From Minisyncoccota bacterium (GTDB lineage: Bacteria > Patescibacteriota > Minisyncoccia > Phycocordibacterales > JABAAK01), in assembly GCA_958295675.1 (NCBI GenBank), contig OY282360.1:52133-116132 (forward strand): DNA of 64,000 bases. Reading direction: 5' to 3'. The notes beneath the pieces are model-generated. The model did not search any database and was not told the origin of the DNA. It saw only the letters and a list, made by a program, of their open reading frames with translations. Position numbers and translations under genes: made by a program. Shown piece after piece: positions 12,949 through 59,118 of this stretch; within the stretch, counting starts at the first letter, position 1, and each line of letters opens with the position of its first letter.

Positions 12949-12954
12949 ACGATG

Positions 12955-31599: not shown

Positions 31600-31689
31600 A
31601 ATGCCAGTATATATGGGTGGTAAGGAATATGCAATAACACAAAACCTGTGCATCACACTGATGTGCAGAATGCATACTACAATATATAT

Positions 31690-33325: not shown

Positions 33326-34120
33326 ATGAAAATATATTCATGGAATGTAAACGGACTTCGGGCGGTACACAACAAAGGCGCACTGGACTCGTTCATAAAA
33401 AAAGAAAACCCTGACATTCTGCTGTTGCAGGAGATAAAAGTGAAGGAGGAGCAATTGAGCGATGCACTTACCGATGATTCTTTCATTCGCTGCTACAACC
33501 CTGCGGACAAAGCGGGATACTCAGGTGTCGCCATTTGGGTGCATCCGCGTAACAAAAAGATATTCAAGGAATTTTCAAAAGGTATGCCGCGCTGGAAAGA
33601 CGGTGAAGGACGGGTGGCGCAGTGTTCGTTGACAAACAAGACAGTCATTCTCTCCGTCTATGTACCGAACGGCGGCAAATCAGATGATGCGTATAAGGAT
33701 AAACTGCTGTTTTTCAACCTGCTCGCATCATACGCAAAAAAACTCCAGAAAGAGGGGCACAAGGTTATCATCGGCGGCGATTTTAATGTCGCGCGCAGCG
33801 AATTAGATCTTGCCGAGCCGGAAAAATTCAGAAACCATACCCACTTCAATGATGAGGTGCGGGCACACATGGAAAAACTCACAGCAGCCGGTCTTGTGGA
33901 TACCTACCGGACACGCAATCCGGACAAAGAAGGTGCGTACAGTTACTGGGACAACTTCAGTTTTTCACTTCCTCGCGGCACAAAACCCCGTGATGTAAAC
34001 AAGGGCTGGCGTCTTGACTACTTATTGGTTGATCCGTCTACAGACAAAAACATCAAAGAAGTTTCTATACACCAAAACATCTTCGGGTCGGATCACTGCC
34101 CTGTTTCAGTGCACCTATAG
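33326..34120 (+). CDS. xth: Exodeoxyribonuclease III (AP endonuclease, EEP family)
   Basis: MKIYSWNVNGLRA start motif, LLLQEIK, final SDHCPV; true ATG at 33326 (track ORF begins at an upstream TTG). Confidence 0.9.
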   Translation: MKIYSWNVNGLRAVHNKGALDSFIKKENPDILLLQEIKVKEEQLSDALTDDSFIRCYNPADKAGYSGVAIWVHPRNKKIFKEFSKGMPRWKDGEGRVAQCSLTNKTVILSVYVPNGGKSDDAYKDKLLFFNLLASYAKKLQKEGHKVIIGGDFNVARSELDLAEPEKFRNHTHFNDEVRAHMEKLTAAGLVDTYRTRNPDKEGAYSYWDNFSFSLPRGTKPRDVNKGWRLDYLLVDPSTDKNIKEVSIHQNIFGSDHCPVSVHL

Positions 34121-34126
34121 CGAACA

Positions 34127-35620
34127 TCACCGAACACCGTGTTTTTTGCGTATACTCATAATTTCTTCCTGTTCTTCCTCCATACGCCGCACCTTCCCTT
34201 TTTCACCAAGTGCCGCAAGTTTCTCGTCAGGCATTTGTGATAATTCCTTTGCGCGAACGAACAGCACCTCCTTCTCATTTTTTGTTGGATCTTCAAGCAC
34301 TTCGGCAAGCAGTGTATGCAGCATATAACCGATACGAGGTCCCGGTTTCATATCCAATTCCTTCATAAGCATGCTTCCGTCTATTACCAGTGTGCCGGGG
34401 GTAATCGGTTCTCGCAGCACTTCCTCCACCATTGCTGTGTACTTGCGCAGACGGTACGGCTGTTCTTTCGGACGACCGGTACCGATACGGTCGCACATAC
34501 GCAGATCAATCAAATCCCAAATATTTTGCGCGCCAACTCGTGCCACCATCCGCCGGACACCCGCCGCTGTAACTTGTTCTGTGTCCGAAAAAAACATGTG
34601 CCATCGCACCAGAAGTGATGCCATATCAACAATATCCTTTGAAAATCTCATACGCCGCAGAATCTTCCTCGCAACGCGCGCGCCGACAACTTCATGCGTG
34701 TAGAATGTCCAGTCCTGTTTCTCATTTGACCATTCGCGCGTTTCCGGTTTACTAATGTCGTGCAGCAGTGCGGCAAGCCGCAACTCAAGCGACAGCTCTT
34801 TCACCCGAGCGTGCTCAAGAGTGCGGACATTATGCTCAAACACATCGTACTTATGCGCCTGATTCTGTTCAATGGACACTCCGCGCAAAAGTTCAGGAAT
34901 AATATGCCGCATCAGTCCGATTTCTTTAAGCAGAAAAATACCCTCAGCGGGCTTGTCTGCCATTAGAATTTTCACAAATTCATCCCGCACCCGTTCCACA
35001 GCAATGACAGCGAGCGAATCAGCGTGTTTCCGTATCGCTTCTCCGGTTTTTTCTTCAATAGAGCCGTTTAGCTGGGTGGCAATGCGCACCGCCCGCATCA
35101 TGCGCAGCGCATCTTCATTAAACCGTTCTTCAGGGTTGCCGACTGCGCGTATGTGTCCGTTGTGCAGATCGGCAATCCCGTTGTGCAAATCAACCAATTC
35201 CTTAGTAATCGGGTTGTACGCCAATGCGTTTATAGTAAAATCCCGCCGCGACAAATCCTCTTCCAAAGAAACACCGAACATCACCGCATCCGGCCGTCTA
35301 TTGTCGCTATACCCTGTCTCCTTTCTGTACGGCGTCACCTCTATGAGATTTTGAGCAGGATCTTTAATATCGTCAAACACCACACCAACTGTGCCGTAAT
35401 CATTCTCATAAACAGTGTGATCAAACAAATCCTGTATCTGCTCGGGTGTCGCATTAGTGGTGAAGTCCCAGTCAGCAACCGGATACTTCATAATCATGCC
35501 GCGAACACATCCGCCGATAATGTACGCATCAAAACCGGCATTGTGCAGCGTTTCAGCGACGGAAAGCACATGCTTCGGAACATCAAGATCAACAATATTT
35601 TTTGTTTCTTGTTTTGCCAT
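34127..35620 (-). CDS. cca: tRNA nucleotidyltransferase (CCA-adding)/poly(A) polymerase family with HD domain
   Basis: GGCVRGMIM…DWDF pol-beta nucleotidyltransferase head; HD-domain in C-terminal half. Confidence 0.85.
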   Translation of the reverse strand: MAKQETKNIVDLDVPKHVLSVAETLHNAGFDAYIIGGCVRGMIMKYPVADWDFTTNATPEQIQDLFDHTVYENDYGTVGVVFDDIKDPAQNLIEVTPYRKETGYSDNRRPDAVMFGVSLEEDLSRRDFTINALAYNPITKELVDLHNGIADLHNGHIRAVGNPEERFNEDALRMMRAVRIATQLNGSIEEKTGEAIRKHADSLAVIAVERVRDEFVKILMADKPAEGIFLLKEIGLMRHIIPELLRGVSIEQNQAHKYDVFEHNVRTLEHARVKELSLELRLAALLHDISKPETREWSNEKQDWTFYTHEVVGARVARKILRRMRFSKDIVDMASLLVRWHMFFSDTEQVTAAGVRRMVARVGAQNIWDLIDLRMCDRIGTGRPKEQPYRLRKYTAMVEEVLREPITPGTLVIDGSMLMKELDMKPGPRIGYMLHTLLAEVLEDPTKNEKEVLFVRAKELSQMPDEKLAALGEKGKVRRMEEEQEEIMSIRKKHGVR

Positions 35621-35680
35621 ATATACAGTATATAGTTATTTGTCCGTGAACTGTAAAAACTGCTACACTGTGTGCTACAT

Positions 35681-35754
35681 GCGCCCGTAGCTCAGCTGGA
35701 CAGAGCGCCCGGCTTCGGACCGGGAGGTCGTGGGTTCAAATCCTACCGGGCGTG
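35681..35754 (+). tRNA. tRNA-Arg (anticodon TCG)
   Basis: Manual cloverleaf: acceptor GCGCCCG/CGGGCGT, D arm GCTC…GAGC, anticodon stem CCCGG/CCGGG with loop CTTCGGA, T arm GTGGG-TTCAAAT-CCTAC; 74 nt, no encoded CCA. Confidence 0.8.
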
Positions 35755-35798
35755 CTGAACACAAAAAACAATATACGAAAGCGTGATACAGTACCAGT

Positions 35799-37484
35799 AT
35801 GCAGAGCAAGCGCATAGGAGAAAAAGAGTTTAGTGCGGCACCATATTGGGCAGATGCCGTCGCCGATATCCTCATCGCTGCGCATCCGGACAAAAAAACA
35901 TTTGTCTGCGCCGCGGGCATTAGTCCCTCCGGATCGGTTCATTTCGGTAATTTCAGGGAAATTGTCACTTCATTCGCGGTCGCACAGGCACTCAAAGATA
36001 AAGGAAAAAAAGCGGAGTTAATATTTTCATGGGACAATTTTGACCGATTCAGAAAGGTGCCGGCAGGTATTCCAAAGGAATACGAGCAATATGTCGGCAA
36101 GCCGCTTTCAGGTATTCCATCCGCAAATAATACAAATGAATCGTATGCCGAAGTATACCAGAAAGAATTTCAGGATGCGATGAAAGAATTTGCAATCTCG
36201 ATTATTTATAAAGATCAAACAAAACTTTACACAGCAGGCACCTATGACCGCCACATTATTACCGCGATACAGAAACGAAAAGAGATAGCGGACATTCTGC
36301 TCGCGCACATGACGGATAAAGGAAAGGAACTGAAAGGTATCAGCGACCGTGAATACCGGGAATCCTACTACCCAATATCGGTATATTCGCGGTTTACAGG
36401 CAAGGATGCGACAGAGATTCTCTCATGTGACAATACAACTATCCGCTATCGCTGTAAAATCACAAAGGAGGAGGAGGAGATAGATTTCACACAAACACAT
36501 ATTGTGAAACTGAATTGGAAAATAGATTGGGCGATGCGCTGGATGCACGAGGATGTGTGTTTTGAGCCGGCAGGCAGCGATCACGCCGCGCCAAATGGCA
36601 GCTATGATGTTTCATCAGAAGTAGCGAGAAAGATATTCAACACAGAGCCGCCAATGTTCACCGAGTTCGGCTTCGTCGGACTGCGCGGTCTCGGCACCAA
36701 AATGTCCGGATCGTCGGGAAAAAATATCACACCGGCAATACTTCTCACCATCTACGAACCGGCACTACTGCTGTGGATGTATCTCCGTCGTCTTCCGAAA
36801 CAAACCTTTTCCCTCGCATTTGACACTGAAGTGTATAGGCAATACGATGAAATGGATAAAATATTTCGCATGCCGAAAGCAAATCGGTTAAAACATCTAT
36901 TAAAAATAAAAAAAGCGAATATCAACCGAACAGACGGCGCGGAAAAACGGGTAGCAGAAATGCTGAAAAAAATACACAGTATCAGCAGAAACCCAATTCC
37001 TTTCCGCCAGTTGGTGGGACTTGCACAAATTATTCAATGGGATGAAGCCAAACTCGGCAAACTGCTTGTGGCATCAGGACAATCGTTTGATTCTGAGACA
37101 ATCCGCGCCCGCTTACCGAAAGCGAAAACATGGGTTACTGAATATAACACGGATGCACTTGTCACTCTTCGGACTGAGGTAAACACAGAAGCATGGAAAG
37201 AGATAGATGAAGAAAACAGAGAATACATTCGTCAGCTTGGGGAATATATACAGCAGTACGGAACCGGCAATATACAAGAAACAGAGAAATTTCTCTACAA
37301 TCTTCCCAAAGTGCAGTACACAAATGAAAACGATTTAAAAAAAGCGCAACGAACCTTATTCAAACATATATATCGTCTTCTGATCGGTAAGGATGCCGGT
37401 CCGCGGCTCAGCACATTCCTTTGGTCTGTATCCGCAAAACAATTACTGCACCTTTTTTCATTTAATCAGGTGGAGGAACTTTAA
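35799..37484 (+). CDS. lysK: Lysine--tRNA ligase, class I (archaeal-type LysK)
   Basis: HIGH-type motif SGSVHFGNFRE, WDNFDRFRKVP (matches class I LysRS), KMSGS (KMSKS). Confidence 0.8.
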   Translation: MQSKRIGEKEFSAAPYWADAVADILIAAHPDKKTFVCAAGISPSGSVHFGNFREIVTSFAVAQALKDKGKKAELIFSWDNFDRFRKVPAGIPKEYEQYVGKPLSGIPSANNTNESYAEVYQKEFQDAMKEFAISIIYKDQTKLYTAGTYDRHIITAIQKRKEIADILLAHMTDKGKELKGISDREYRESYYPISVYSRFTGKDATEILSCDNTTIRYRCKITKEEEEIDFTQTHIVKLNWKIDWAMRWMHEDVCFEPAGSDHAAPNGSYDVSSEVARKIFNTEPPMFTEFGFVGLRGLGTKMSGSSGKNITPAILLTIYEPALLLWMYLRRLPKQTFSLAFDTEVYRQYDEMDKIFRMPKANRLKHLLKIKKANINRTDGAEKRVAEMLKKIHSISRNPIPFRQLVGLAQIIQWDEAKLGKLLVASGQSFDSETIRARLPKAKTWVTEYNTDALVTLRTEVNTEAWKEIDEENREYIRQLGEYIQQYGTGNIQETEKFLYNLPKVQYTNENDLKKAQRTLFKHIYRLLIGKDAGPRLSTFLWSVSAKQLLHLFSFNQVEEL

Positions 37485-37504
37485 AAAATGTATTCCATTG
37501 CCGG

Positions 37505-38473
37505 CTATTCTTTCAAATGTTTTTCAACAATTGAAACAACTTGATCAACACTAAGTTGTGAATCAACACCCTGCGGACTACCTCCGATAGTCGGCGATCC
37601 TCCCCACCCCGGCTCTAATTCATTGAGTTCCATAAGTGCTGCTTTAATATCTGCAAACTTCTTTTCAAAAGTGCAGACAGTGAACTTCTTGTATGGATCT
37701 TTTCCGTGCTGTTTGAAGGAGGGATTCAACGCAACAACAACCGGAGCGAGAGAATATCCGACAGTTGTTCCGGCTCGGTGTGTACTCTCCACAAATGCAA
37801 TTCTGCCGTCCGCTCTGGTTTCATAAGTAATATCACCATTTTCCAGCGCCTTTACCATATCCAATTTTTCTTCATGCACCTGCTTGCGGTATATTTCTGA
37901 TTCATTGCCGGTTTTTAACCACTCTTTCATTGATGCAACACGATCGGCAAGCGGTACCTTGAAGTCTGATATTTCCGCAGCAATCGCAGCAAGCACTTCT
38001 TCATTCTGATTATTCCATAATGTTTCTTGTGTGGGCAGCGGTTTCGGTCCGAGGTACCCTCCTTGTGCGAATTTATCAGAATCAGCAATGATTTTTACTC
38101 GTTCCATCGCTGCGTCATCAAGGACTCCGTCTTCAGATCGAATTGTAAATACAGCCATTGCGCCAACCGAATCAAGGTCAGCACGAACAGTGGCGAATAA
38201 GGCATCTTGAGGTGGGGTTTCAAATATAACAGCTTCCTCAATGGCGGCTGTGTCAGAATCCCCACCTGTGTGTTGGGGATCAATATTCACAACACAACGC
38301 TCCGCAAGTTCCGGTACAGTGACCTCAATACCGTATACATTATTACTTTCAAACACTTGATCATTATGCTCCCTTGCAGCCGGTATTGGTCTGGGGTCAA
38401 GTACTGCAAACGAATAAAAAGATGGTTTTTCCCGTTGCTCTTTATTTCCAAAATTATCAAATTTATTTTCCAT
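37505..38473 (-). CDS. Hypothetical protein (no recognisable domain; GC higher than the adjacent cassette)
   Basis: ~323 aa from MENKFDNF; acidic; ends at the left edge of the AT-rich cassette. Confidence 0.5.
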   Translation of the reverse strand: MENKFDNFGNKEQREKPSFYSFAVLDPRPIPAAREHNDQVFESNNVYGIEVTVPELAERCVVNIDPQHTGGDSDTAAIEEAVIFETPPQDALFATVRADLDSVGAMAVFTIRSEDGVLDDAAMERVKIIADSDKFAQGGYLGPKPLPTQETLWNNQNEEVLAAIAAEISDFKVPLADRVASMKEWLKTGNESEIYRKQVHEEKLDMVKALENGDITYETRADGRIAFVESTHRAGTTVGYSLAPVVVALNPSFKQHGKDPYKKFTVCTFEKKFADIKAALMELNELEPGWGGSPTIGGSPQGVDSQLSVDQVVSIVEKHLKE

Positions 38474-38599
38474 ATATACATCATAATAACACGCAAAACT
38501 CAAGACAGAATATATAAAAAACAATAAATGGATTTCTATAGATATCCAGGGTGCCGTTCAGGCGATTATGCTCGAACTATAGCACGAAAGTTGAAAGAG

Positions 38600-38760
38600 T
38601 ATTTTGAGAACAACACGCGCGCTCAGTAAGCACGAGAACTAGTCGCTCCGCCCTCCCGTGCCAATCACCGCTGTTATTTTCTTTTTCCATTCAATCCGTC
38701 CACTCCGTTTTTCCCACTCTGTCCTTTTGCTCCGCAAAAGTTCGAATCTGGAAATGCTTT
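38600..38760. repeat. Left copy of a ~130-nt imperfect inverted repeat flanking the AT-rich cassette
   Basis: CGCGCTCAGTAAGCACGAGAACTAGTCGCTCCGC…CTCCCGTGCCAATCACCGCTGTTATTTTCTTTTTCC is the reverse complement (roughly 80-85% by eye) of 43895-44025. Confidence 0.6.
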
Positions 38761-38776
38761 ATTATCTGTAGTATAA

Positions 38777-39691
38777 TTAGGCATCATCAAGATTATATTG
38801 TTTTAGTAATTCAACTCTCCAGTTAATAACTAGATTATTAAAAATCTCTACGCAATATTTTGTTAAAACCGTTTCTTCTAATAGAAATAAATTTGTATCA
38901 TAACACCTTTGTGTACGCGAATACTTATAATCTAATATACATTCCTCTTCCTCTCTTCTGATGTCTCCAATTTCAAATATAGATAATACACTAATAAAAT
39001 AATCTGTTAGAACAGTTTCTCCAAGAGGTTCAGACATGCTTAATCCAAGGTTTGGATTTCCAAATGGAGCTTGTGTTGGCATTATCTTATTCTTGTTCGT
39101 TTTTTGAATAAAATAATACCTTTCTACCCTAAAATTTATAAAAGAAAAAACTGTTTTTAATATCTGTTCATCAGTCATACTTTTTTTAAAAAAACTCTTT
39201 TTTGCCGCCATTTCTGATTGTACAAGAGTATTTAATTGTTCATTGAGTGTTTTAAATACTGATTCCTTAACAGACTTTTTCTCTTTCCGCTTTTTACACA
39301 AATTTTCTATGGTCATGTCATTCATAAAAACTTGCAACGCAAGGCTTTCAAAATAAATTAACAATCTTTGTTCTCTATCAGAGTATTTAAATTTAGTATT
39401 TTTAGGAGCTCGCATATCTTTTAGCATCTTATTGTGAAATTCCTTTATCTTTGCAGCGGAATTGCTTAATGAAATTGCGTGAGCACGTGAAATATGCATG
39501 AGAATAATTGCAAAATCATTTAAAGAAATACTTCCTTCCTCTTTTGCAGAATTCATTGTTTTTTTGAGAAAGTGGAAATTCTTTCTTGTCCCTTCAAGAT
39601 CAAACTTCACTCTAATTAATTTTTTTCGCCAATCTTTGAGCAAGTCAGCGCATTTTAACTCTGTTTTGTTTATGTTATCTCTTGTCTTCAT
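38777..39691 (-). CDS. Hypothetical protein of AT-rich cassette (possible abortive-infection/defense accessory)
   Basis: 304 aa, K-rich helical, no motif recognised; markedly lower GC than the chromosome backbone. Confidence 0.55.
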   Translation of the reverse strand: MKTRDNINKTELKCADLLKDWRKKLIRVKFDLEGTRKNFHFLKKTMNSAKEEGSISLNDFAIILMHISRAHAISLSNSAAKIKEFHNKMLKDMRAPKNTKFKYSDREQRLLIYFESLALQVFMNDMTIENLCKKRKEKKSVKESVFKTLNEQLNTLVQSEMAAKKSFFKKSMTDEQILKTVFSFINFRVERYYFIQKTNKNKIMPTQAPFGNPNLGLSMSEPLGETVLTDYFISVLSIFEIGDIRREEEECILDYKYSRTQRCYDTNLFLLEETVLTKYCVEIFNNLVINWRVELLKQYNLDDA

Positions 39692-39785
39692 AACTGAAAG
39701 GAAATTGCAGATACATAAAATATACCATATCTATTCTTTCGCACTGGGTCAGCGCCTACGATACCTCTAAGAAAAAGAAATTATA

Positions 39786-41258
39786 TCATGATGCTACAGA
39801 AGCTGACACTTTCTTTCTTGCGTCAATCAAAACAATATTTTCATCTTTTTCTAGACCAATCTCTTCTAGAATTTTAATAACTCTTTCATATTCACTTTTC
39901 TCAAAAAATAATATAACTGTAAAACCATTAAATGTTCTGTTTGCTCTTTTGTATATTTCTACCTGTTTTTGTAAATTTTGCTTTAATTTTTTATTTTTTG
40001 CAAGTTTAAATTCAACCAATGTCTTGTCTCTCTTGCTCGAGATAGTAAAATCAACTGAACCTCGACCATTATTCACCTCACGGTTTACATCAAAATCAGA
40101 ATTGTAACATGTCAAATGGAATAATAGTTGAAGATCTCTTTCATTGCTGATACATCCATCTTCACGATAGAAAAGCTTATATCCGTCCATGTTTTCTATA
40201 AAATCTTTCAGAATAAGAATCCTTTTCTTTGCCTCATGATAACTTCTCACTGGCTTATAAAAACCAAGGTTTTGTAATCGCCCAATCAGAGATTGTGCAT
40301 TTTCTACAAAGAAGGTATCAGAATAATCAACCTTTTGTTGACTGATATTTATTGCTTGGTCACCATTTTCTTCCTTATATTTTATGTAGTAATCAAAGAG
40401 CTCCGGAAACCTAATGAAAGTTGATCGTATCGCTGTATTCCTTTCTTCCTTTTTCATCTCCCTATTTCCTCTTTCGTACTGTTTTATACGATTTTTATAG
40501 TAATTATTTATTTGATGGCGTAGTTGAGCATTATCAATAGTACTTGGTATTTCTGTAAAATCTTCAATCAGACCTTTTCTATTAATCCATACATCATCTT
40601 TGGTCAATATATCTACTGGCGTTAAAATGACATAGTCATTTTCAAATTTTGGCAAGATAAAATTTTTTTCTGCCCACACTTCCGTATCATAGTTAAAATA
40701 AGATTTCTTGACCCTGAAAGTTCTCGTTAGTCTTTTGTCAATGTATCGTTTTGTAAATTTTTGGGTGTATTCAAGTAAAAAATGCTTGATTAAATTGGTA
40801 ACAAAATCACTTATATTATCCCTACCAACGCCATCCTTAACCAAGCACAATTTTTCTAAATGCGCCCCTCTCGTTATATTTTCTTCACCAAAATTTTGAA
40901 AAACAGTATTTAAATTTCCGTGCAGAGCTTCTGCAAATTTCATTCCGAGTGCGTGTCCTTTGTTTCCGATCACAGAATAACCAAGCCAGTTTTGCTGAAC
41001 CTCACTGAACATATACCATGACTTCATTTTGCCAACATCTACTTCTTCAGAAGATTTGTCTTTCACGAAAATTAAATATTTGATTATTTCATTGTGTAAT
41101 TTTTGATATTCTTCCTTTTCGCTATTAAAAAGAAGGAAAGGATCAATAAAAAGAGGTAAATCAGTAATAAGGGATATATTAAATGCTCCATATTCTTTGA
41201 GATCGTCTTTTTTTACATTAAAATAGTCTGAAAAGTGGGGTTTCACATGCTTGTGCAT
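39786..41258 (-). CDS. Hypothetical protein with C-terminal PD-(D/E)xK-like nuclease motif
   Basis: 490 aa; C-terminal …GRGSVDFTISSKRDKTLVEFKLAKN fits D…(D/E)xK spacing of restriction-endonuclease-like fold; N-terminal 380 aa unassigned. Confidence 0.5.
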   Translation of the reverse strand: MHKHVKPHFSDYFNVKKDDLKEYGAFNISLITDLPLFIDPFLLFNSEKEEYQKLHNEIIKYLIFVKDKSSEEVDVGKMKSWYMFSEVQQNWLGYSVIGNKGHALGMKFAEALHGNLNTVFQNFGEENITRGAHLEKLCLVKDGVGRDNISDFVTNLIKHFLLEYTQKFTKRYIDKRLTRTFRVKKSYFNYDTEVWAEKNFILPKFENDYVILTPVDILTKDDVWINRKGLIEDFTEIPSTIDNAQLRHQINNYYKNRIKQYERGNREMKKEERNTAIRSTFIRFPELFDYYIKYKEENGDQAINISQQKVDYSDTFFVENAQSLIGRLQNLGFYKPVRSYHEAKKRILILKDFIENMDGYKLFYREDGCISNERDLQLLFHLTCYNSDFDVNREVNNGRGSVDFTISSKRDKTLVEFKLAKNKKLKQNLQKQVEIYKRANRTFNGFTVILFFEKSEYERVIKILEEIGLEKDENIVLIDARKKVSASVAS

Positions 41259-41444
41259 ATGATATTATTATATCAAAACTGTCCTGTCAGGGCTTATTTC
41301 TCTTGCTTGTGATTGATTCAGGATTTTCTTCTGAATATATAAGGTTTGAAATACATAGTTCATTTTCTTTTTTCTTCATATCAACATTCTTCATTGCCCT
41401 GTTGTATCCTGTATGTTAGGCATTGAGGAGCCATCTTTTTCATT

Positions 41445-42536
41445 TTATTTTCCTGATTTAGTGCGGTTATCTTTTTTGCATAACATCTGGCAATTTTTTG
41501 CAATTGTTTTACCACCTTCATGCCAAGGGGTAATATGGTCAGCCTCCATCTCTTGAATCTCAAACCGTTTTTCGCATTTTGCGCAGATACCCTTTTGCCT
41601 CTCATACGCTTCTCGCTTCATGTTCTCGGTAAAGGTACGAATAGAAAGATGTTTTTCCTCTCTCGTTAAGACATAGGGGTAAATGCCAGATTTTTTAGTC
41701 ACATCTTCGTCTTGCATTAATTCAGTAATCTCAGTCTCTAGTTTTTTAGCATTCAGGTTTTGAGTATTGAATTGGTTATACAGTTCACCCCAATGTACAC
41801 TCGCCATCTCATTGCGGTAATTGGTAAAAGTCTTTCGCACCCAAGCAACCACCCTTTGAAAGTATTCCCATAATTCATCAGCATTTTTATCGTGCTGATG
41901 TTTTGCCATGTACTCTTCTATTTCTCCGTTATTGATCCAGGAAAGTGCAGTCTCTAGATAGTCCTGTCTTATCGGCGAACCCTTCAGAAGTGATCCATCA
42001 TCATTCGCCAAAAGGTATGCTGCACAACCTGTTTTGCTAAATTTTAGCTTTGCGTCAGAGAGCCACGGTCCGGTGTAGACCGCATTTCGTATTTCCTGGT
42101 CAGTTAATTCTGCACCGGCAATATTAATAATCCTAAACCAATCAAGCCGCTCTTTATCTGTGCCTTCGCAGAAGTAAATCATTAGTTCATAATTTAAAAT
42201 CTGGTCTTGTTCCTCGCCAGTTAAATTATGAAAATAGTGATTATTCAATGAAAAGTCACCGTTTATATATTGTCCTATACTTATAGTTCGTTGTTGACCG
42301 TCCAGCATTTCATAATTTCCACCTTCTTTTACCATCCAGTACATAACATTGAGTGGAAAACCATTTTTAATTGTTTCAATTACGGCATCACGCTGTTTGC
42401 CGGTATAGACAAACTCTCTTTGGTATTTAGGACGAATGTCTAATCTACCACCATAGGCGGTAACACCTTCCTCATCACTGTCTTTGTATTTCTCAACCAC
42501 ATCACGAACCAAAATCTTGTGTAATTCAATTTTCAT
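41445..42536 (-). CDS. DUF262 (ParB-like, DGQQR motif) + C-terminal HNH nuclease protein
   Basis: MLDGQQRTISIGQY (DGQQR signature) in N-terminal half; C-terminal CAKCEKRF…ADHITPWHEGGKT…NCQMLCKKDN = HNH (Cys4 + His-Asn-His); start overlaps MTase stop. Confidence 0.75.
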   Translation of the reverse strand: MKIELHKILVRDVVEKYKDSDEEGVTAYGGRLDIRPKYQREFVYTGKQRDAVIETIKNGFPLNVMYWMVKEGGNYEMLDGQQRTISIGQYINGDFSLNNHYFHNLTGEEQDQILNYELMIYFCEGTDKERLDWFRIINIAGAELTDQEIRNAVYTGPWLSDAKLKFSKTGCAAYLLANDDGSLLKGSPIRQDYLETALSWINNGEIEEYMAKHQHDKNADELWEYFQRVVAWVRKTFTNYRNEMASVHWGELYNQFNTQNLNAKKLETEITELMQDEDVTKKSGIYPYVLTREEKHLSIRTFTENMKREAYERQKGICAKCEKRFEIQEMEADHITPWHEGGKTIAKNCQMLCKKDNRTKSGK

Positions 42537-42537
42537 G

Positions 42538-43566
42538 TTATTTTTTTGCTTTTTTATTTCTTATTAATATTCTGAAGTATGTATACTTTCCATCTATCGA
42601 TAAATCCTTATCATCATCACCTTTTCTAAACTTTACTATCTCAAACTGGTCAGGATTATATTTGTCAAGGAATGTGATTGGGACACCTATAACACCATCA
42701 TAATTATAAGGTATATCGGTATATTTATCTACATTAATTGCATTATAATTATCATATTTTGGATATTCTTCCGGTGTGTATTTTTTATAAAGTACGATAT
42801 CGTTTTTGTGTTTTGTAACTTCAAGATTTGTAAACCAACATGAAGTTGCTACACGAGCAATCTTCTTGCCATTTTCATCAATATGGTGAAATTTTTCCCA
42901 ATCGTCTGGTACAACAAAAAACATTCCTACATTAAAATTAGTATAACCAGTTCGAATTTTATTTTCCTTGAAAAATTTAAAAATCTCTTTATATGTAATT
43001 GCATTTGTATTACCAATAATCAAGAATTCTTTATCAAGTTCTGTTAATTGTGTAACATACTCACGAAATAATGAAAATGGAGGGTTAGTAACCACCACAT
43101 CCGCTTGTTTGAGTAAATTGACACATTCTTCACTACGAAAATCACCATCACCTTCAAGAGGTTTTGCAACATTAGCATCTTGTCTCAGTAATTGCTCAAC
43201 GTCTTCCAAATTGACTGCACCATCATTATTAAGATCTTTAACTTCATTAATTTCAATTCTAAATGGCTCCTTTCCTTCAGGTTTTAATCCCTCTATTTCA
43301 ACGAGTGGCAACTGCCCACCAGCAATTGGTGACCTTATATAACTTGTGGCAATAAGTTTTTTAAGTTTCAGTGCGTTAAAATTAGCGGCAAAATACTTAA
43401 AAAAGTTACTTTCATAAGGATCATCGCAGTTACAGTACACAACCTTATCATGAAATTGTTCTTTGTAATGTCTTAACTCTTTCTCAATATCAACAAGTTG
43501 AGTATAAAACTCATCTTTTTTTGCTTTAGATGCCTGATGAAGAGCTGTATTTGAAGATTTAGCCAT
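42538..43566 (-). CDS. DNA methyltransferase (amino-methyltransferase, NPPF motif IV; N6A or N4C)
   Basis: DEFYTQ near N-terminus and VVVTNPPFS catalytic motif; 342 aa; translationally coupled to the DUF262-HNH gene. Confidence 0.8.
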   Translation of the reverse strand: MAKSSNTALHQASKAKKDEFYTQLVDIEKELRHYKEQFHDKVVYCNCDDPYESNFFKYFAANFNALKLKKLIATSYIRSPIAGGQLPLVEIEGLKPEGKEPFRIEINEVKDLNNDGAVNLEDVEQLLRQDANVAKPLEGDGDFRSEECVNLLKQADVVVTNPPFSLFREYVTQLTELDKEFLIIGNTNAITYKEIFKFFKENKIRTGYTNFNVGMFFVVPDDWEKFHHIDENGKKIARVATSCWFTNLEVTKHKNDIVLYKKYTPEEYPKYDNYNAINVDKYTDIPYNYDGVIGVPITFLDKYNPDQFEIVKFRKGDDDKDLSIDGKYTYFRILIRNKKAKK

Positions 43567-43894
43567 AACAATTTCTTATACTTAAAGTATGCCATCTAAT
43601 TTTTATGATAATCCAACAGAAGAAATTCCAGCAAAAACAAATTATCCACCCATTTTTCTTATAACGACAGTGTGTATTCTCATAATAGGAAATCCGTCCG
43701 TGAAAACCCTATCGGGAGGTTCACTGGCGGATTACTAGTTTTCCTCTCCTTCGCCAACGCCGAACATTTTCTTTTGCAGTTTTGATACGTGCCGTTAAGG
43801 CATAGAAAGGTTCTAGTGATACATATTGATGACCCACCTGCTCTCCGTACCGAATCCGCGGCGAGCACGCGGAGTTGGGGCGGTGGAAGAATAG

Positions 43895-44025
43895 AAAAAG
43901 AAAATAACGGCGGTGATTGGCACGGGAGCGGAGCGAACGGAGGGGTCTTGTCGCAGGCATGTCCCCGCAACGATGCGGAGCGACTAGTTTTCATGTTTAC
44001 TGAGCGCGAATGTGTGTCATCTTGT
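43895..44025. repeat. Right copy of the imperfect inverted repeat (contains a 46-nt insertion relative to the left copy)
   Basis: GAAAAAGAAAATAACGGCGGTGATTGGCACGGGAG…CGGAGCGACTAGTT…TACTGAGCGCG matches the reverse complement of 38600-38700. Confidence 0.6.
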
Positions 44026-44034
44026 ATCCTTGGG

Positions 44035-44105
44035 TGCGGGCGGGGAGAATCGAACTCCCGTTTTCCGCTTGGAAGGCGGATGTTCTACCACTAAACTACG
44101 CCCGC
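44035..44105 (-). tRNA. tRNA-Gly (anticodon TCC)
   Basis: Cloverleaf on minus strand: acceptor GCGGGCG/CGCCCGC, anticodon stem TCCGC/GCGGA, loop CTTCCAA, T arm GGGAG-TTCGATT-CTCCC; 71 nt. Confidence 0.85.
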
Positions 44106-44132
44106 GAGGTCAACGCTTTTACTATACTACAC

Positions 44133-44170
44133 AAAAAGCGAAGACAAGATTTCCTGCCTTCGCTTTTTTG
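44133..44170. terminator. Bidirectional-looking stem-loop (AAAAGCGAAG…CTTCGCTTTT) flanked by A-run and T-run
   Basis: 10-bp stem, 14-nt loop, T6 on plus side and A5 on the other. Confidence 0.45.
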
Positions 44171-44448
44171 TATTGCATAATTTTCAATTACTCACTTCCC
44201 TCTCCTCCAGCTGTTTCTGCACCTGCCTCCTTCCGCTCTTCATCGTTGCCCTCACCAGGAGTATTGTTCTGCATTTCGTCTGTGTTTTCGTTCATCATAT
44301 ATGATTGATTTGATTTTTTGATAATACAGTCCGTATGGACATAACCACATAATACTACATGCCAGCAAGATATCAATAGGAAGCAAAATACAGGAGTATA
44401 AAATACAATACTTGCATATATGTCAAGTTTATGCTAATATAGTACTAT

Positions 44449-44742
44449 ATGATTAATAAAACAGAACAAAAAACCATAAAAATCAAGGTCTTTTTCACCG
44501 TGTTTATCGCAGTTTTGCTGGCATCGTTTATAGCAGTACCTCTGTATACCAATGCGCATACACCCACCAATGATGTCTGTCAGGAAGAGAGAATAGAGGA
44601 AAACCGTCGCTTTCTTGGCATTCTCATCACACTTTTGGGTATGTTAGAGGATGAATCCGTAGGTGGCGAATCTCCTGCAGACGATGGCAGTGATAGGCAG
44701 AGTACAGCAACCACTGGTAAAAATATGCTTGCATCTGTCTAA
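44449..44742 (+). CDS. Small membrane protein, hypothetical
   Basis: 97 aa; TM FFTVFIAVLLASFIAVPLY; acidic C-terminus. Confidence 0.4.
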   Translation: MINKTEQKTIKIKVFFTVFIAVLLASFIAVPLYTNAHTPTNDVCQEERIEENRRFLGILITLLGMLEDESVGGESPADDGSDRQSTATTGKNMLASV

Positions 44743-44792
44743 GAAAGTGTCATAAACATCGTATTATTTCATTATCAATTACATTATTACCC

Positions 44793-44858
44793 CTCACGCC
44801 CCCTGGTGTGTCCGTGCTTTATTACTACCCTCTTCACGGACACACCAGGGGGCGTGAG
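44793..44858. repeat. Perfect 24-bp inverted repeat hairpin (18-nt loop) immediately 3' of tRNA-Pro(CGG)
   Basis: CTCACGCCCCCTGGTGTGTCCGTG …18 nt… CACGGACACACCAGGGGGCGTGAG; no mismatches. Confidence 0.7.
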
Positions 44859-44874
44859 CATTATATATACATTG

Positions 44875-44946
44875 TCGGAGAGCCGGGACTCGAACCCGGA
44901 GTCACACGCACCCGAAGCGTGTATGTTACCCTTACACTACTCTCCG
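44875..44946 (-). tRNA. tRNA-Pro (anticodon CGG)
   Basis: Acceptor CGGAGAG/CTCTCCG, anticodon stem CACGC/GCGTG, loop TTCGGGT, T arm CCGGG-TTCGAGT-CCCGG; 72 nt. Confidence 0.85.
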
Positions 44947-45022
44947 AATACTAATAATATAGTACACAACTTCAATACTATACAGCACCTGTAATCATTT
45001 CATATGATACAGTACCTACATC

Positions 45023-45751
45023 ATGGCGGTAGAAATTGTATCCCTGCTTATTGTTATCGGCATTCTACTATATGTGTTGCCGTCCCTTATTGCGCATTAT
45101 CGTGGACACAAGCACACACTCCAGATTATCCTACTCAACCTTTTCCTTGGTTGGACAATTGTTTGTTGGTTCGGTGCATTCGTTTGGTCTGTTCTGACAG
45201 ACACACCACCAATTGATCTGAAACAGGTACTTAAGAAAATATTGATCACACTTCTTATTGTCACACTGCTTTTCATTGGATTAGTGTTCGGAATAAATCG
45301 GTTTCTGTACACATCTATTACTTCAGAATCGGAAGATATTTCTTGGCAACTCTCCACACAAGTAGGTTATCTCATATCACCATATCCATTCGCACAATTA
45401 CATTCAGACACTGCGCATGGCAGTCAATCATCTCTCTACATACATTGTCGGCATGACTTTCTGCAAGTACATATAGCTACCAACTTGCACGGACAGTTAC
45501 CCGGTGATGAATCAGATAAGCAGGTAAGGGCGCGACATCGAATAGGTCAGGGTGACTGGATAGATTTGGAATGGATTGCAAAACGCGGCGGTGTTACTTA
45601 TCCAGACACTGATTTTGTTCATTTTGTGAATTCACTGGACCAAGAAAAATCTGACCTTGTGATTGAATTTGAAACCGGCACCAAAGTTCAATTCCCTATT
45701 TGGAACGGTTACGACGATATGCGCAATCATATTACTTGTTTGCGGCAATAG
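45023..45751 (+). CDS. Superinfection-immunity-like (Imm/SIP family) membrane protein with C-terminal extension
   Basis: N-terminal …LPSLIAHYRGHKHTLQIILLNLFLGWTIVCWFGAFVWSV matches the two-helix superinfection immunity protein signature; second TM pair follows; 242 aa. Confidence 0.6.
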   Translation: MAVEIVSLLIVIGILLYVLPSLIAHYRGHKHTLQIILLNLFLGWTIVCWFGAFVWSVLTDTPPIDLKQVLKKILITLLIVTLLFIGLVFGINRFLYTSITSESEDISWQLSTQVGYLISPYPFAQLHSDTAHGSQSSLYIHCRHDFLQVHIATNLHGQLPGDESDKQVRARHRIGQGDWIDLEWIAKRGGVTYPDTDFVHFVNSLDQEKSDLVIEFETGTKVQFPIWNGYDDMRNHITCLRQ

Positions 45752-45863
45752 ATGTTTTATCCGGTATTGTATAACGACAACACTTTCCGTGGTTGAACAG
45801 ATAGAGCACTGCATACAATTGAACCCGCATGTCCACAATAACAGATACAAAAATTCCTTTCAG

Positions 45864-45936
45864 TCGGGGAGCCGGGATTCGAACCCGGAGTCACCCGCAC
45901 CCAAAGCGGGCATGTTAGCCGTTACACCACTCCCCG
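45864..45936 (-). tRNA. tRNA-Pro (anticodon TGG)
   Basis: Acceptor CGGGGAG/CTCCCCG, anticodon stem CCCGC/GCGGG, loop TTTGGGT, T arm CCGGG-TTCGAAT-CCCGG; 73 nt. Confidence 0.85.
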
Positions 45937-45985
45937 GATAAGCAGTGGTAATTATACCATATATGCACTGTGCTATACTGTATAC

Positions 45986-46723
45986 ATGAAAGAAAAAAGA
46001 AATTTTTTTCTTGCTATTATAGGGATATTAATTATTCTATTAATTTTCTCTCTTTTTTCAGATTATAAGGAGCATGTATATGAAGAGAGAAAAGTGTTGT
46101 ATGAAGATGAAAGTGTTGAAGTTGCCAATCAGGAAAACCGTCCTAAATCCTGCAACAGTAATATTAAGGAGGTTGTTTCTGAAGAAGGTATGATTGCTGT
46201 TACATATGAAAGACCATCATGGCTGACCGGGCATGTAAAACAATGTGATATTGAACAATATATCTATGCACAGTATGCAGAGATTAAAAAAAGTGCGGAC
46301 GATTTGTTAGCCGAATTTCCGGATAGTGCACTACTTCCCTTTCGGCTGAATATAAAAATAAAACAGTATGTTGTTGATCCATACGAAAGTATTATTATTG
46401 AAAACTGGCATTATACCGGCGGCGCACATGGCAATGTTGCATATAAATATTATAATTTAAAGGAAAAGAGTGACATCTCATTTGAAAAATATCTGAATGA
46501 TATCAGATATGATAAGCAGAATCTATTACAACAAGTGAACAAGCAACTAGAAGAAGATGGAAATGATATGATAGAAAAATTTGAATCGGAATATGAAGAT
46601 CAGGAAGTTTCATTTCCATGGCATATACACCAGCGCGAAGACGAATCCTTGGGCATCACATTCATTTTTCCTCCATATTTTGTCGCATCATATGCGGCTG
46701 GCACGATTGTGTATTCATTTTAA
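45986..46723 (+). CDS. DUF3298/DUF4163-like membrane-anchored protein
   Basis: N-terminal TM FFLAIIGILIILLIFSLF; WHYTGGAHGN motif characteristic of DUF3298 (RsiV/PdaC-type) domains. Confidence 0.6.
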   Translation: MKEKRNFFLAIIGILIILLIFSLFSDYKEHVYEERKVLYEDESVEVANQENRPKSCNSNIKEVVSEEGMIAVTYERPSWLTGHVKQCDIEQYIYAQYAEIKKSADDLLAEFPDSALLPFRLNIKIKQYVVDPYESIIIENWHYTGGAHGNVAYKYYNLKEKSDISFEKYLNDIRYDKQNLLQQVNKQLEEDGNDMIEKFESEYEDQEVSFPWHIHQREDESLGITFIFPPYFVASYAAGTIVYSF

Positions 46724-46764
46724 ACACTTCTTTTCTTTCCTCCCTTTATATTGCTTAAAACAGA

Positions 46765-47172
46765 TTATACCCAGAAAATTTCTATACTCGGATACAAACG
46801 ATCGTGCGGCAAGATAACACCAATAACACCTAATGCAACACCAGTATATTTCGGATGACTATTTAAATAATAGTTGCCAAATTGTGACATTCGTTGTATT
46901 TTCTTTTTTGTAATTCGGTCTGATAGACAAAAATCAAAATCAATTATATTATCAACATTTTGTGTGTTTCTATGTGAAACATTAGAAGATGTTTCACGTG
47001 AAACACTCTTAACTTCAAATATATAAAGCACCTGATTCTTTTTTGCAATAATATCCACTTCTATAAATTTAGCTTTGTATTGCATGGCTATTATTGTATA
47101 TCCACAACTTTTCAAATACTTTTCCGCATATTTTTCCCCAGTATTTCCAATAAATTTCTGAAGTGTAAACAT
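46765..47172 (-). CDS. YraN/UPF0102-family predicted endonuclease (PD-(D/E)xK fold)
   Basis: GEKYAEKYLKSCGYTII…FIEVDIIAKKNQVLYIFEVKS matches the YraN signature; contains a perfect parS 16-mer in its coding sequence (46990-47005). Confidence 0.7.
   Translation of the reverse strand: MFTLQKFIGNTGEKYAEKYLKSCGYTIIAMQYKAKFIEVDIIAKKNQVLYIFEVKSVSRETSSNVSHRNTQNVDNIIDFDFCLSDRITKKKIQRMSQFGNYYLNSHPKYTGVALGVIGVILPHDRLYPSIEIFWV
46990..47005. promoter_or_regulatory. parS consensus site (TGTTTCACGTGAAACA) inside the YraN-like gene
   Basis: Perfect match to the 16-bp palindromic chromosomal ParB/Spo0J binding consensus. Confidence 0.7.
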
Positions 47173-47196
47173 AGTTCTCTACAATTTATATACCAT

Positions 47197-47858
47197 TGTT
47201 TCACGTGAAACATGTACAAATACACATATTTCACACACAAGTGTTTCACGTGAAACAGTTTCCTTGTGAAACGATTTACGTAAAATAAGGATATTTTTGC
47301 ACAAAGATGTTTCACGTGAAACATGCAGAGCCGTTAAACACACACAAGTGTTTCACGTGAAACAGTTTCCTTGTGAAACGATTTACGTAAAATAAGGATA
47401 TTTTTGCACAAAGATGTTTCACGTGAAACATGCAGAGCCGTTAAACACACACAAGTGTTTCACGTGAAACAGTTTCCTTGTGAAACGATTTACGTAAAAT
47501 AAGGATATTTTTGCACAAAGATGTTTCACGTGAAACATGCAGAGCCGTTAAACACACACAAGTGTTTCACGTGAAACAGTTTCCTTGTGAAACGATTTAC
47601 GTAAAATAAGGATATTTTTGCACAAAGATGTTTCACGTGAAACATGCAGAGCCGTTAAACACACACAAGTGTTTCACGTGAAACAGTTTCCTTGTGAAAC
47701 GATTTACGTAAAATAAGGATATTTTTGCACAAAGATGTTTCACGTGAAACATGCAGAGCCGTTAAACACACACAAGTGTTTCACGTGAAACAGTTTCCTT
47801 GTGAAACGATTTACGTAAAATAAGGATATTTTTGCACAAAGATGTTTCACGTGAAACA
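47197..47858. repeat. Tandem array of 13 perfect parS sites: six identical 107-bp direct repeats, two parS each, plus one flanking copy
   Basis: TGTTTCACGTGAAACA found at 47197, 47242, 47308, 47349, 47415, 47456, 47522, 47563, 47629, 47670, 47736, 47777, 47843; 107-bp period verified by coordinates; each unit also carries a GTGAAACG half site. Confidence 0.85.
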
Positions 47859-47961
47859 TGTTTCACAAGGTAACACTTACAAGGTGTTTATAGCATTATA
47901 GTAGATACTTGTATAGAATCCTATTTTATTAATAAAAAGAATGGGACAGATATATTATTTC

Positions 47962-47993
47962 AAAAAAATTCCTCTTTTGTGTAAAAGAGGAAT
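47962..47993 (-). terminator. Rho-independent terminator for the minus-strand small membrane protein gene
   Basis: On minus strand: TTCCTCTTTT-acac-AAAAGAGGAA followed by TTTTTTTG. Confidence 0.5.
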
Positions 47994-48021
47994 AATCAGG
48001 CGATGCCTGATGAGAATGTCG

Positions 48022-48309
48022 CTATGAACACTCAATTGATGTAAATGGAAAGATCTGCATCAACAGAACTCCGCCGAAGATGGTAAGACCGATCGTCAAG
48101 AAAAACACAAGTTCTGAGACACCTCCGTCTTTAACCCGCTTCAGCACAGAAATCGCTACTGAGATGACGGATGGGACGAGAAAAGCAAGCACAACGGCAT
48201 TGATCATTACTGGTGCCACATTCGGCAGTCCGGTTACAACAAAAATGCTGAGTATCAATGTGGCAACAAGAACAGAGAGAGTTCCCAGCCTAGTTGTTTG
48301 TTTTGCCAT
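48022..48309 (-). CDS. Small two/three-TM membrane protein, hypothetical
   Basis: 95 aa from ATG at 48309 with GGAG 8 nt upstream; hydrophobic helices throughout. Confidence 0.5.
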   Translation of the reverse strand: MAKQTTRLGTLSVLVATLILSIFVVTGLPNVAPVMINAVVLAFLVPSVISVAISVLKRVKDGGVSELVFFLTIGLTIFGGVLLMQIFPFTSIECS

Positions 48310-48480
48310 GTTTCTATCTCCTTTTATGGAAAGAAAGTGGAAATCTAGCAGGCGAGCACGAGAAAAGGTATTTTGCCTCCTACAAGCACTCAAGTACATA
48401 ATACCACTTTTAATGATATTTCACAATAAGTAAAATATCCATTTTTTAAAAAGTATCCCTATGTGAAAAAATTGACAATT

Positions 48481-48774
48481 TTATATCTTCACCTTATAAT
48501 TTTTCCCATTATATATAATAGCAACCCCTTCCTTTTCAAGTATATGTTTTTTTCGATGAATACCGCCACGATTGTAGTTACCGAGTGTGCCATCACTTTT
48601 TATCACTCTGTGGCAGGGAACTGACGGATTATGGTTATGTGCCATGAGAGTGCCAACAGCTCGTTGTGCATTAGGATTGCCGGCTTTGCGCGCAACTTCT
48701 TGGTATGTCATGGTACTTCCTTTCGGTATTGATGAGACAATATATAGAACTTTTTCTTTAAATGCGGTTGTCAT
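48481..48774 (-). CDS. Methylated-DNA-protein-cysteine methyltransferase DNA-binding domain protein (minimal MGMT/Ogt-like)
   Basis: 97 aa; active-site motif VPCHRVI with Cys retained; only the C-terminal alkyltransferase domain present. Confidence 0.7.
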   Translation of the reverse strand: MTTAFKEKVLYIVSSIPKGSTMTYQEVARKAGNPNAQRAVGTLMAHNHNPSVPCHRVIKSDGTLGNYNRGGIHRKKHILEKEGVAIIYNGKNYKVKI

Positions 48775-48782
48775 ATTATCAG

Positions 48783-48853
48783 TGCGGGTAGGGAGAATCG
48801 AACTCCCGTCTTAGCCATGGCAAGGCCACGTTCTACCACTAAACTATACCCGC
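48783..48853 (-). tRNA. tRNA-Gly (anticodon GCC)
   Basis: Acceptor GCGGGTA/TACCCGC, anticodon stem TGGCC/GGCTA, loop TTGCCAT, T arm GGGAG-TTCGATT-CTCCC; 71 nt. Confidence 0.85.
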
Positions 48854-48961
48854 GGACAGAATGCGACATGCATGCGGTACACACAATGTCGCGCGAATAT
48901 AGTATAGCGTATACAGACGATATGAAAACCAATCTCTGTTAATGGTACACACAACTTGTTT

Positions 48962-49032
48962 GACAAGCAGGTTAGTATGCAATACACTGGTGTTGTGTAA
49001 TAGTTGTATTCCGCCTCAGGCGGGATTTTTTA
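48962..49032 (+). promoter_or_regulatory. Possible nusA promoter (TTGACA-17-TACACT) followed by a leader hairpin with T-run
   Basis: TTGACAagcaggttagtatgcaaTACACT then CGCCTCAGGCGG + GATTTTTT ~25 nt before the nusA ATG. Confidence 0.3.
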
Positions 49033-49054
49033 ATCCAATTTTGTAAAAAAAGAT

Positions 49055-50386: not shown

Positions 50387-50473
50387 AATCGGAACAGGAG
50401 AAAGAAAATACCAAGTAAATAAAGGGTATTTTGTGCCTTTGCGAAATATGAATCCATGGTATACTAAAAGCGC

Positions 50474-59117: not shown

Positions 59118-59118
59118 C

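Follow-up and report, generated by a model that had tools for sequence, protein, structure and literature searches.

The 64,000-nucleotide stretch of contig OY282360.1 from a Minisyncoccota bacterium that we analysed (hereafter the window) carries, next to a tRNA-Gly(TCC) gene, a cassette of four open reading frames (ORFs) on the minus strand (38777-43566) that is bracketed by an imperfect inverted repeat. From the tRNA side, these encode an EcoRI-family N6-adenine DNA methyltransferase (342 aa), a DUF262-HNH restriction endonuclease (363 aa), a DUF8370/DUF8371 protein with a C-terminal PD-(D/E)xK nuclease domain (490 aa) and a near-orphan protein of 304 aa. A preliminary description, made from the sequence alone, had listed the same four co-directional genes. 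We find the ORFs and their coordinates as given there, and hidden Markov model (HMM) searches agree with its reading of their content (an EcoRI-family methyltransferase with an NPPF motif, a DUF262+HNH nuclease, a PD-(D/E)xK-type protein of 490 aa and a 304-aa protein of no known kind). It had further proposed that the genes are AT-rich, horizontally acquired and free of any integrase or transposase, and that the repeats mark them as an atypical mobile or defence element.

The first of these proposals is borne out by base composition. Sliding GC content is 0.28-0.34 over 38750-43500 as against 0.41-0.51 on both sides, and the mean for the cassette is 0.327, compared with 0.44 for the left flank (38525-38776) and 0.455 for the right flank (43567-44032). 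Gene by gene, GC content and third-codon-position GC content (GC3) are 0.294/0.243 (304-aa gene), 0.315/0.269 (490-aa gene), 0.388/0.365 (nuclease gene) and 0.309/0.201 (methyltransferase gene), so that the cassette genes have 29-39% GC where their neighbours have 40-50%. Twenty-three of 26 reference genes in the window fall at GC 0.42-0.50 and GC3 0.34-0.54 (16/18 up to position 38473 and 5/5 from NusA on); the exceptions are the genes at 3014-4126 and 4359-5720 (GC 0.395-0.397) and three genes at 45023-47172, a second AT-rich stretch (GC 0.30-0.42). Divergence in codon usage from the rest of the window is raised in three of the four cassette genes, with the largest values in the 304-aa and methyltransferase genes. 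These differences, together with the absence of the cassette from a syntenic relative described below, support the proposal that the genes were probably acquired horizontally.

The methyltransferase (42538-43566, minus strand) matches PF13651 (E = 1.7e-133) and the PADLOC MTase_II model (E = 4e-123) and carries an NPPF motif. Its gene lies 1 nt upstream of the co-oriented nuclease gene (41445-42536, minus strand), whose product consists of a DUF262 (GmrSD_N) domain with a DGQQR motif (PF03235, E = 7e-16) and a C-terminal HNH domain in which the HNH motif is present (PF01844, E = 9e-11); the nuclease is a full-length match to the PADLOC REase_II model PDLC03418 (E = 1.3e-132). Nuclease homologues with 52-61% identity are found on plasmids, where they adjoin genes for EcoRI-family methyltransferases. 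For example, overlapping or abutting two-gene units are present on plasmids of Aeromonas, Mammaliicoccus, Sulfitobacter, Gordonia, Variovorax and Ruania, and the Aeromonas locus (L066) has the same gene order and overlap as the pair in the window. The DUF262 gene overlaps or abuts an EcoRI-family methyltransferase gene in 8 of the 12 plasmid matches listed; on the Macrococcoides and Chryseobacterium plasmids only the DUF262 gene is listed under the match. Judged by family membership and arrangement, the pair would be a known and widely travelling Type II restriction-modification (R-M) module. Four-base palindromes are strongly avoided in the window (observed/expected: TCGA 40/157, GGCC 22/106, ACGT 29/95 and AGCT 60/121), a pattern that is not assignable to the R-M pair of the cassette and that suggests long-term pressure from restriction systems other or older than this one.

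The 490-aa protein (39786-41258, minus strand) is identical at 490/490 positions to a protein (P0001) with precomputed matches to PF28123 and PF28130. It belongs to a family of more than 6,300 homologues (53-77% identity) that are distributed over many phyla, including the Candidate Phyla Radiation (CPR), Omnitrophota and Thermodesulfovibrionales. An AlphaFold2 model built from 42 sequences has a predicted local distance difference test score (pLDDT) of 81. The C-terminal domain possesses both the D...(D/E)xK catalytic signature and a restriction-endonuclease-like fold; residues E373, D403, E416 and K418 are invariant, although the pLDDT of the model is below 50 over residues 390-410. Foldseek returned no PDB match for the whole model, and the N-terminal region is likewise without a structural match in the PDB. 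Residues 5-262 match the PADLOC model PDC-M36A (E = 1.8e-21), and none of the other three cassette proteins matches a PDC-M36 model. We considered membership of the PDC-M36 system and rejected it, as only the N-terminal half of its protein A is matched and the other proteins of the system are not adjacent. No publications were retrieved for PDC-M36, DUF8370 or DUF8371 in a literature search.

Relatives of this gene are found in varied surroundings. The closest (77% identity at the protein level and 83.5% at the DNA level, with homology confined to the gene) is located in another CPR genome, where it stands solo beside Mrr and has no partner gene. Other representatives follow a helix-turn-helix (HTH) gene and a gene for a superfamily 1 (SF1) helicase of 1,526 aa, lie among integrases or are next to a serine recombinase, and homologues are present on ten IMG/VR contigs. 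Since the neighbours vary across genomes, the gene appears to behave as a mobile single-gene unit, and its product is a candidate stand-alone defence nuclease that most likely acts alone. A single member of the family, P0063, is present in identical form in more than 20 contigs (represented by L058-L061) behind the HTH gene and the 1,526-aa SF1 helicase, which has a Top1-type zinc ribbon; the P0063 gene is followed by an ORF of 130-165 aa, and in L060 a large serine recombinase adjoins. In these loci the same nuclease may form the centre of a separate multi-gene system.

The 304-aa protein (38777-39691, minus strand) is predicted to be all-helical and gives no match to a family of Pfam, PADLOC, NCBIfam or PHROG except for a WAPL hit in Pfam that falls below the threshold (16.5 bits; cut-off 24.6). 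A word-indexed search returned only the protein itself, and exhaustive HMMER comparison with 1.84 billion representative proteins revealed one homologue (P0242, 31% identity, E = 4e-25), so that it is a true near-orphan. A single-sequence AlphaFold2 model is unusable (pLDDT 37). P0242 is encoded in a defence-like context (L065) adjoining DpnI, reverse-transcriptase and HTH genes. The 304-aa protein is not a conserved partner of the DUF8370/DUF8371 protein, being absent from the eleven other contexts of that family examined, and the 278-aa partner of P0242 is unrelated to DUF8370/DUF8371 (hhalign probability 0.2%).

The class-I lysyl-tRNA synthetase (LysRS) gene at 35799-37484 has close relatives exclusively in Paceibacterota, Saccharibacteria and Parcubacteria, and on this sequence criterion the window would be placed in the Patescibacteria (CPR), with a Paceibacterota-like affinity. 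Proteins identical to those of the window are recorded on one 724,510-bp contig. The best LysRS match (66% identity) is encoded on a 641-kb chromosome (OZ244939.1, referred to here as L001), which shares with the window the order tRNA-Arg, LysRS, tRNA-Gly(TCC), tRNA-Gly(GCC), NusA. In the window the variable locus is bounded by a conserved 339-aa gene on one side and on the other by tRNA-Gly(TCC) (44033-44105, minus strand; identified by ARAGORN, Rfam score 76.7 bits), which is co-oriented with the cassette genes; this tRNA and approximately 15 nt downstream of it are 93% identical to the L001 tRNA in the syntenic position. The adjacency to tRNA-Gly(TCC) that had been proposed holds in both ARAGORN and Rfam predictions, the right repeat arm ending about 20 nt from the 3' end of the tRNA. 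Between the LysRS and tRNA-Gly genes of L001 there is 1.6 kb from which the cassette is absent. In its place (11893-13144) are a gene for a SocA/Panacea-domain protein, a truncated ORF for a retropepsin-like aspartyl protease (12639-12899, matching positions 8-61 of the 90 in the Asp_protease_2 profile) and an overlapping ORF of 84 aa. Of the related genomes, in which a search for the empty site had been suggested, L001 is syntenic and lacks the cassette; no genuine empty site was observed in a sister strain.

The inverted repeat itself is confirmed and statistically significant, but shorter than first described. It comprises two blocks: core1, in which 38653-38692 and 43889-43928 are identical at 38/40 positions (95%), and core2, in which 38613-38651 and 43975-44013 are identical at 34/39 positions (87%). 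Within the 64-kb window the blastn E values of these blocks are 1e-14 and 5e-8. The right arm (43889-44013) carries 46 nt between them (43929-43974) and the left arm (38613-38692) a single nucleotide, giving arm lengths of 125 and 80 nt rather than 130-160 nt; similarity stops before 38760, and on the cassette side of core1 only 23 of 49 positions agree between 38693-38755 and 43840-43888. The arms differ by five substitutions, all of them transitions, and two indels, and by our count from the alignment the longest unbroken identity is about 18-19 nt. Core1 reads GAAAAAGAA...GTGATTGGCRCGGGAG, and core2 contains a small hairpin and, after it, a T-containing tail, on the strand of each arm that reads outwards.

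No third copy of the repeat was found in the window (nhmmer --max) or in 66 fetched related loci (1.09 Mb). Metagenome and viral contig collections were scanned for an exact 25-base pattern and yielded a single match, in L057; it falls within the gene for a Gfo/Idh/MocA oxidoreductase of a high-GC organism, where it encodes the N-terminal Rossmann motif, and is due to chance or convergence, so that a dispersed repeat such as a miniature inverted-repeat transposable element was rejected. We also rejected a pseudogene: an (A/G)VIG(T/A)G, Rossmann-like motif can be read in one frame of all three copies (both arms and the L001 sequence below), but no reading frame is kept between the copies, each of which stops within approximately 15-30 codons, and a tblastn search of the right flank with L001 proteins gave a best E value of 0.04. 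Pairing of the arms with each other in one long transcript is a further candidate that we discarded, as the five substitutions split 3:2 between strands with respect to G-U compatibility. Rfam searches of the window at the gathering threshold, and of both flanks at E <= 10, returned tRNA and noise only. Fold energies in the four strand and flank combinations (z = -2.3 to +0.1 against shuffles) give no clear indication of a stable RNA structure, and promoter-like and terminator-like sites are no commoner than in shuffled sequence.

The source of the repeat is indicated by L001, which contains a single copy (12525-12710) in the position and orientation of the left arm; the right arm is inverted relative to it. 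Core1 of the left arm is identical to the L001 copy at 32/39 positions and that of the right arm at 33/39. Colinearity extends beyond the repeat into the flank outside the left arm, where 50 of 85 positions agree (38528-38612 against L001 12430-12524). As the arms have host-like GC content and the L001 copy is colinear with the left arm and its outer flank, the repeat sequence most probably belongs to the host locus, with the left copy at the ancestral position. L001 has approximately 52 nt where the right arm carries its extra 46 nt. The length difference had been noted correctly and ascribed to an insertion in the right arm; the L001 sequence argues instead for loss of the middle segment from the left arm, apparently by deletion between GCGGAGCGA direct repeats. 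Only the right copy keeps the "up" part of the conserved element (43840-43888, no strand assigned; 35/45 identical to L001 12666-12710), which corresponds to the 3' end of the truncated retropepsin ORF in L001; that ORF breaks off exactly where the conserved element starts. The right copy would thus be an inverted partial duplicate of the element. In core1 the two copies in the window share 95% identity with each other and 82-85% with L001, and the duplication therefore appears to have occurred in the lineage of the window. Across 34000-50500 the core is the only non-coding sequence with a blastn match in L001, besides the tRNAs and a 107-nt tandem array, and its conservation in core1, as against 70% DNA identity for the LysRS gene, suggests that the element has some function.

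Two further features adjoin the arms. The spacer between the methyltransferase gene and the conserved element (43567-43839, no strand assigned) has host-like GC content and presumably holds the promoter of the R-M pair; it contains no convincing ORF, no Rfam match and no similarity to L001 proteins, and the fold z-scores for the right flank in this region are -2.3 and -1.2. At the other end, a possible 33-codon ORF of uncertain status (38528-38629, plus strand) overlaps the outer end of the left arm and ends inside core2; it lies in the "down" part of the conserved element, which is host-like. An ORF of the same length is found at the colinear position in L001 (12431-12532, plus strand), with 13 of 33 residues identical (...CR.G..A..IA..LK.YFE...; tblastn E = 0.001-0.003), and it is possible that it encodes a real small protein.

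Signatures of self-directed movement were sought at the cassette borders and in the surrounding sequence. Domain library searches detected no integrase or transposase domain in any of the four proteins, as the preliminary description had stated, and no transposase was found among the approximately 40 window ORFs scanned, a subset of the total. The only recombinase in this subset is a Xer-like tyrosine recombinase (31648-32550), about 6 kb from the cassette, which is 77% identical to its syntenic L001 orthologue and can therefore be regarded as housekeeping. There is no convincing ORF of at least 60 aa in the flanks, no target-site duplication at the cassette borders, and no invertase inside the segment or among its immediate neighbours. 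A comparison of 44000-44125 with 37400-39000 revealed no direct repeat of at least 9 nt that could represent tRNA-derived attachment sites, the sole shared 9-mer being part of the inverted repeat. An integrase-mediated island targeted to the tRNA was rejected, since neither end encodes an integrase and the 3' end of the tRNA is not repeated at the distal border. The four genes have separate relatives in separate contexts and show no sign of travelling as a unit.

We conclude, with a probability of roughly 0.7, that the locus represents a composite defence island in a variable region and that the repeats at its flanks arose by inverted partial duplication of a conserved non-coding element of the host. 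The island is composed of at least two, and probably three, independent modules. These would have entered the variable locus between the 339-aa gene and tRNA-Gly(TCC) by horizontal transfer, for which uptake by competence is a plausible route, given that ComEC is encoded in the window. In the R-M pair, the EcoRI-family enzyme would modify adenine at the sites in host DNA, and incoming unmethylated DNA would be cut by the DUF262-HNH enzyme. In the 490-aa protein the C-terminal PD-(D/E)xK domain is the probable DNA-cutting effector, and the N-terminal two-thirds probably serve to sense or regulate. The inverted repeats would then be two opposed copies of a non-coding element of the host locus rather than the ends of the island. 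The right copy, placed against the tRNA, was most likely made by a rearrangement that accompanied the insertions, and the deletion in the left arm would have come after the duplication.

Several observations weigh against this interpretation. A defence role for the DUF8370/DUF8371 and 304-aa genes is putative, and the nearest relatives have only 66-70% protein identity, so that the order and mechanism of events are proposals. GAATTC is not avoided in the window (18 copies), and the specificity of the R-M pair is not deducible from it. In addition, core1 is better conserved than LysRS at the DNA level, and if the function that this suggests were recombination, a passive duplication of the element would be the wrong description.

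The wider surroundings of the cassette are also of interest. Homologues of the 339-aa gene (62-70% identity) in L055, L056 and L077, all contigs from ERZ19489113, adjoin other restriction genes, including those for a ResIII helicase, an N6_N4 methyltransferase, an M78 peptidase and Mrr, and in L077 the restriction genes have visibly decayed to fragments. The neighbourhood of this gene is thus repeatedly a defence region, though on the gene's other side; we rejected these contigs as examples of the same hot spot, as the neighbourhood is rearranged, and they lend loose support to a "variable region" only. About 1 kb past the tRNA-Gly and tRNA-Pro genes, 45023-45751 encodes a 242-aa protein with a superinfection-immunity (Imm_superinfect) domain, a homologue of which borders a Type III-like restriction island in L055. 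The second AT-rich stretch (45986-47172, about 33% GC) contains a DUF3298/PdaC-like gene that is kept in L001, as well as a gene for a small UPF0102/NERD-like nuclease (30% GC). A perfect tandem array is located at 47232-47860, with 5.9 copies of a 107-nt unit that are 100% identical and each carry TTTCACGTGAAA-type palindromes. A related array with a 98-nt period (74-78% identity) occupies the syntenic place in L001 (14600-15138) in the opposite orientation; the array is non-coding and yet is kept between genomes that are otherwise alignable only in genes. At approximately 44000-48000 the GC skew flips from negative on the left to positive on the right and gene orientation switches from mostly minus to mostly plus strand. 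This region is therefore a probable replication origin, with the cassette and the tandem array at or next to it; dnaA was not seen among the window genes scanned. ComEC, the DNA-uptake channel, is encoded at 59107-60627 and looks like a core gene.

Among the alternatives, one concerns the arms rather than the genes. The arms could be two working copies of a small lineage-specific element that faces outwards and whose duplication was selected; it might bind a protein, act as a terminator or insulator, or be a small RNA. We regard this as unlikely; it is compatible with our explanation for the genes. The conservation of core1 with L001, which exceeds that of neighbouring protein genes at the DNA level, its singular position among non-coding matches to L001 and the outward-reading hairpin and T-containing tail of core2 are what would be expected of such an element. 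The absence of an Rfam match even at E <= 10, and fold energies that are not clearly better than those of shuffled sequence, argue against it, as does the middle segment, whose length and sequence are variable and which the left copy can do without. No consistent G-U-compatible direction is seen in the five substitutions that separate the arms, and three sequences are too few for covariation.

A related and slightly more doubtful proposal is that the element (approximately 125-170 nt) is a functional, lineage-specific boundary of a defence hot spot near the origin of Paceibacterota-like CPR bacteria. Were this the case, it might anchor recombination, provide a site for inversion or function as a small RNA or terminator that faces outwards, and its inverted duplication would let a recombinase-free cassette be flipped or exchanged.

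It is improbable that the cassette is a non-autonomous cargo transposon (a mobile insertion cassette) with long terminal inverted repeats recognised by a transposase encoded elsewhere, a reading close to the claim of the preliminary description that the inverted repeats define an atypical mobile element. A block of foreign composition that encodes no recombinase does have inverted repeats at its two edges, and its right end is located 20 nt from the tRNA gene. However, the arms have the GC content of the host, the homology with L001 continues outwards beyond the left arm into its flank, and L001 possesses a single copy of the repeat and no cassette. There is neither a target-site duplication nor a further copy of the arms in the window, the 1.09 Mb of related loci or the exact-pattern scans of metagenome and viral contigs; homologues of the cargo genes elsewhere never carry the arms and occur in contexts separate from one another; and the window ORFs scanned include no transposase. 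We therefore do not retain the mobile-element claim.

Marginally less credible again is an invertible, phase-variable segment, in which recombination between the arms would invert the 5.2-kb cassette and switch its expression with respect to a promoter outside it, for example read-through from tRNA-Gly. Large invertible segments with long repeats exist, such as the C segment of phage P1. Here the entire gene set is enclosed by inverted repeats of 80-125 nt and has the orientation of the upstream tRNA, and three related CPR contigs with homologues of the 339-aa flank gene (62-70% identity) encode RecA. Nevertheless, no invertase is adjacent, the longest unbroken identity is short for RecA-driven exchange, and five substitutions and two indels show that the arms have not been homogenised recently. 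Joint shut-off of a Type II methyltransferase and its nuclease would be risky for the cell, and the promoter scan was no richer than in shuffled sequence.

It is highly unlikely that an assembly artefact joined foreign DNA to the chromosome at the repeat: the AT-rich block is bracketed by repeats in an evidently metagenome-derived genome, but inverted repeats of about 100 nt do not make such joins, colinearity with L001 is seen in both flanks, the genes are intact and run in the local direction of replication and transcription, and the closest DUF8370/DUF8371 relative is itself in a CPR genome.

The composite island that we favour implies that a very small CPR genome (approximately 0.7 Mb, going by the contig on which the identical proteins are recorded) holds foreign defence genes beside a tRNA and near a probable origin without an island-encoded recombinase. 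Such an arrangement fits uptake by competence through ComEC followed by illegitimate or homology-assisted recombination. Among its genes, the DUF8370/DUF8371 PD-(D/E)xK protein emerges as a widespread, mobile candidate defence nuclease. If anything here is new, it may lie in the conserved non-coding core alone; none of these findings alters current understanding.

Comparison with known systems places the R-M pair closest to the Type II modules that combine PF13651 with DUF262-HNH proteins, with which it shares the two-gene unit, gene order, tight spacing and full-length PADLOC matches. Homologous pairs (52-61% identity) are found on plasmids of Proteobacteria, Firmicutes and Actinobacteria, and a DUF262 gene with 59% identity on a Bacteroidota plasmid; the window differs in its CPR host and in the lack of GAATTC depletion. 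DUF262 is better known from modification-dependent Type IV enzymes, for example GmrSD, BrxU and SspE (PMC12707154), from which the DUF262 enzyme of the window differs in being paired with a methyltransferase. The 490-aa protein resembles PDC-M36 in its N-terminal 260 residues, which match PDC-M36A, and the identical database protein carries the DUF8370/DUF8371 pair; the likeness is restricted to the N-terminal half, and the partners of the family vary or are absent in other genomes. As in other genomic and defence islands adjacent to tRNA genes, defence genes of foreign composition lie 3' of a tRNA in a locus whose content differs between relatives, but here an integrase and a repeated tRNA 3' end are both lacking, and the borders carry an inverted duplication of host sequence. 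Mobile insertion cassettes, in which inverted repeats derived from insertion sequences enclose cargo but no transposase, and the phage P1 C segment likewise have long inverted repeats that bracket cargo with no recombinase inside; the arms of the present island differ from these in having no target-site duplication, other copy or adjacent invertase, and in being host-locus sequence that is present as a single copy in a cargo-free relative.

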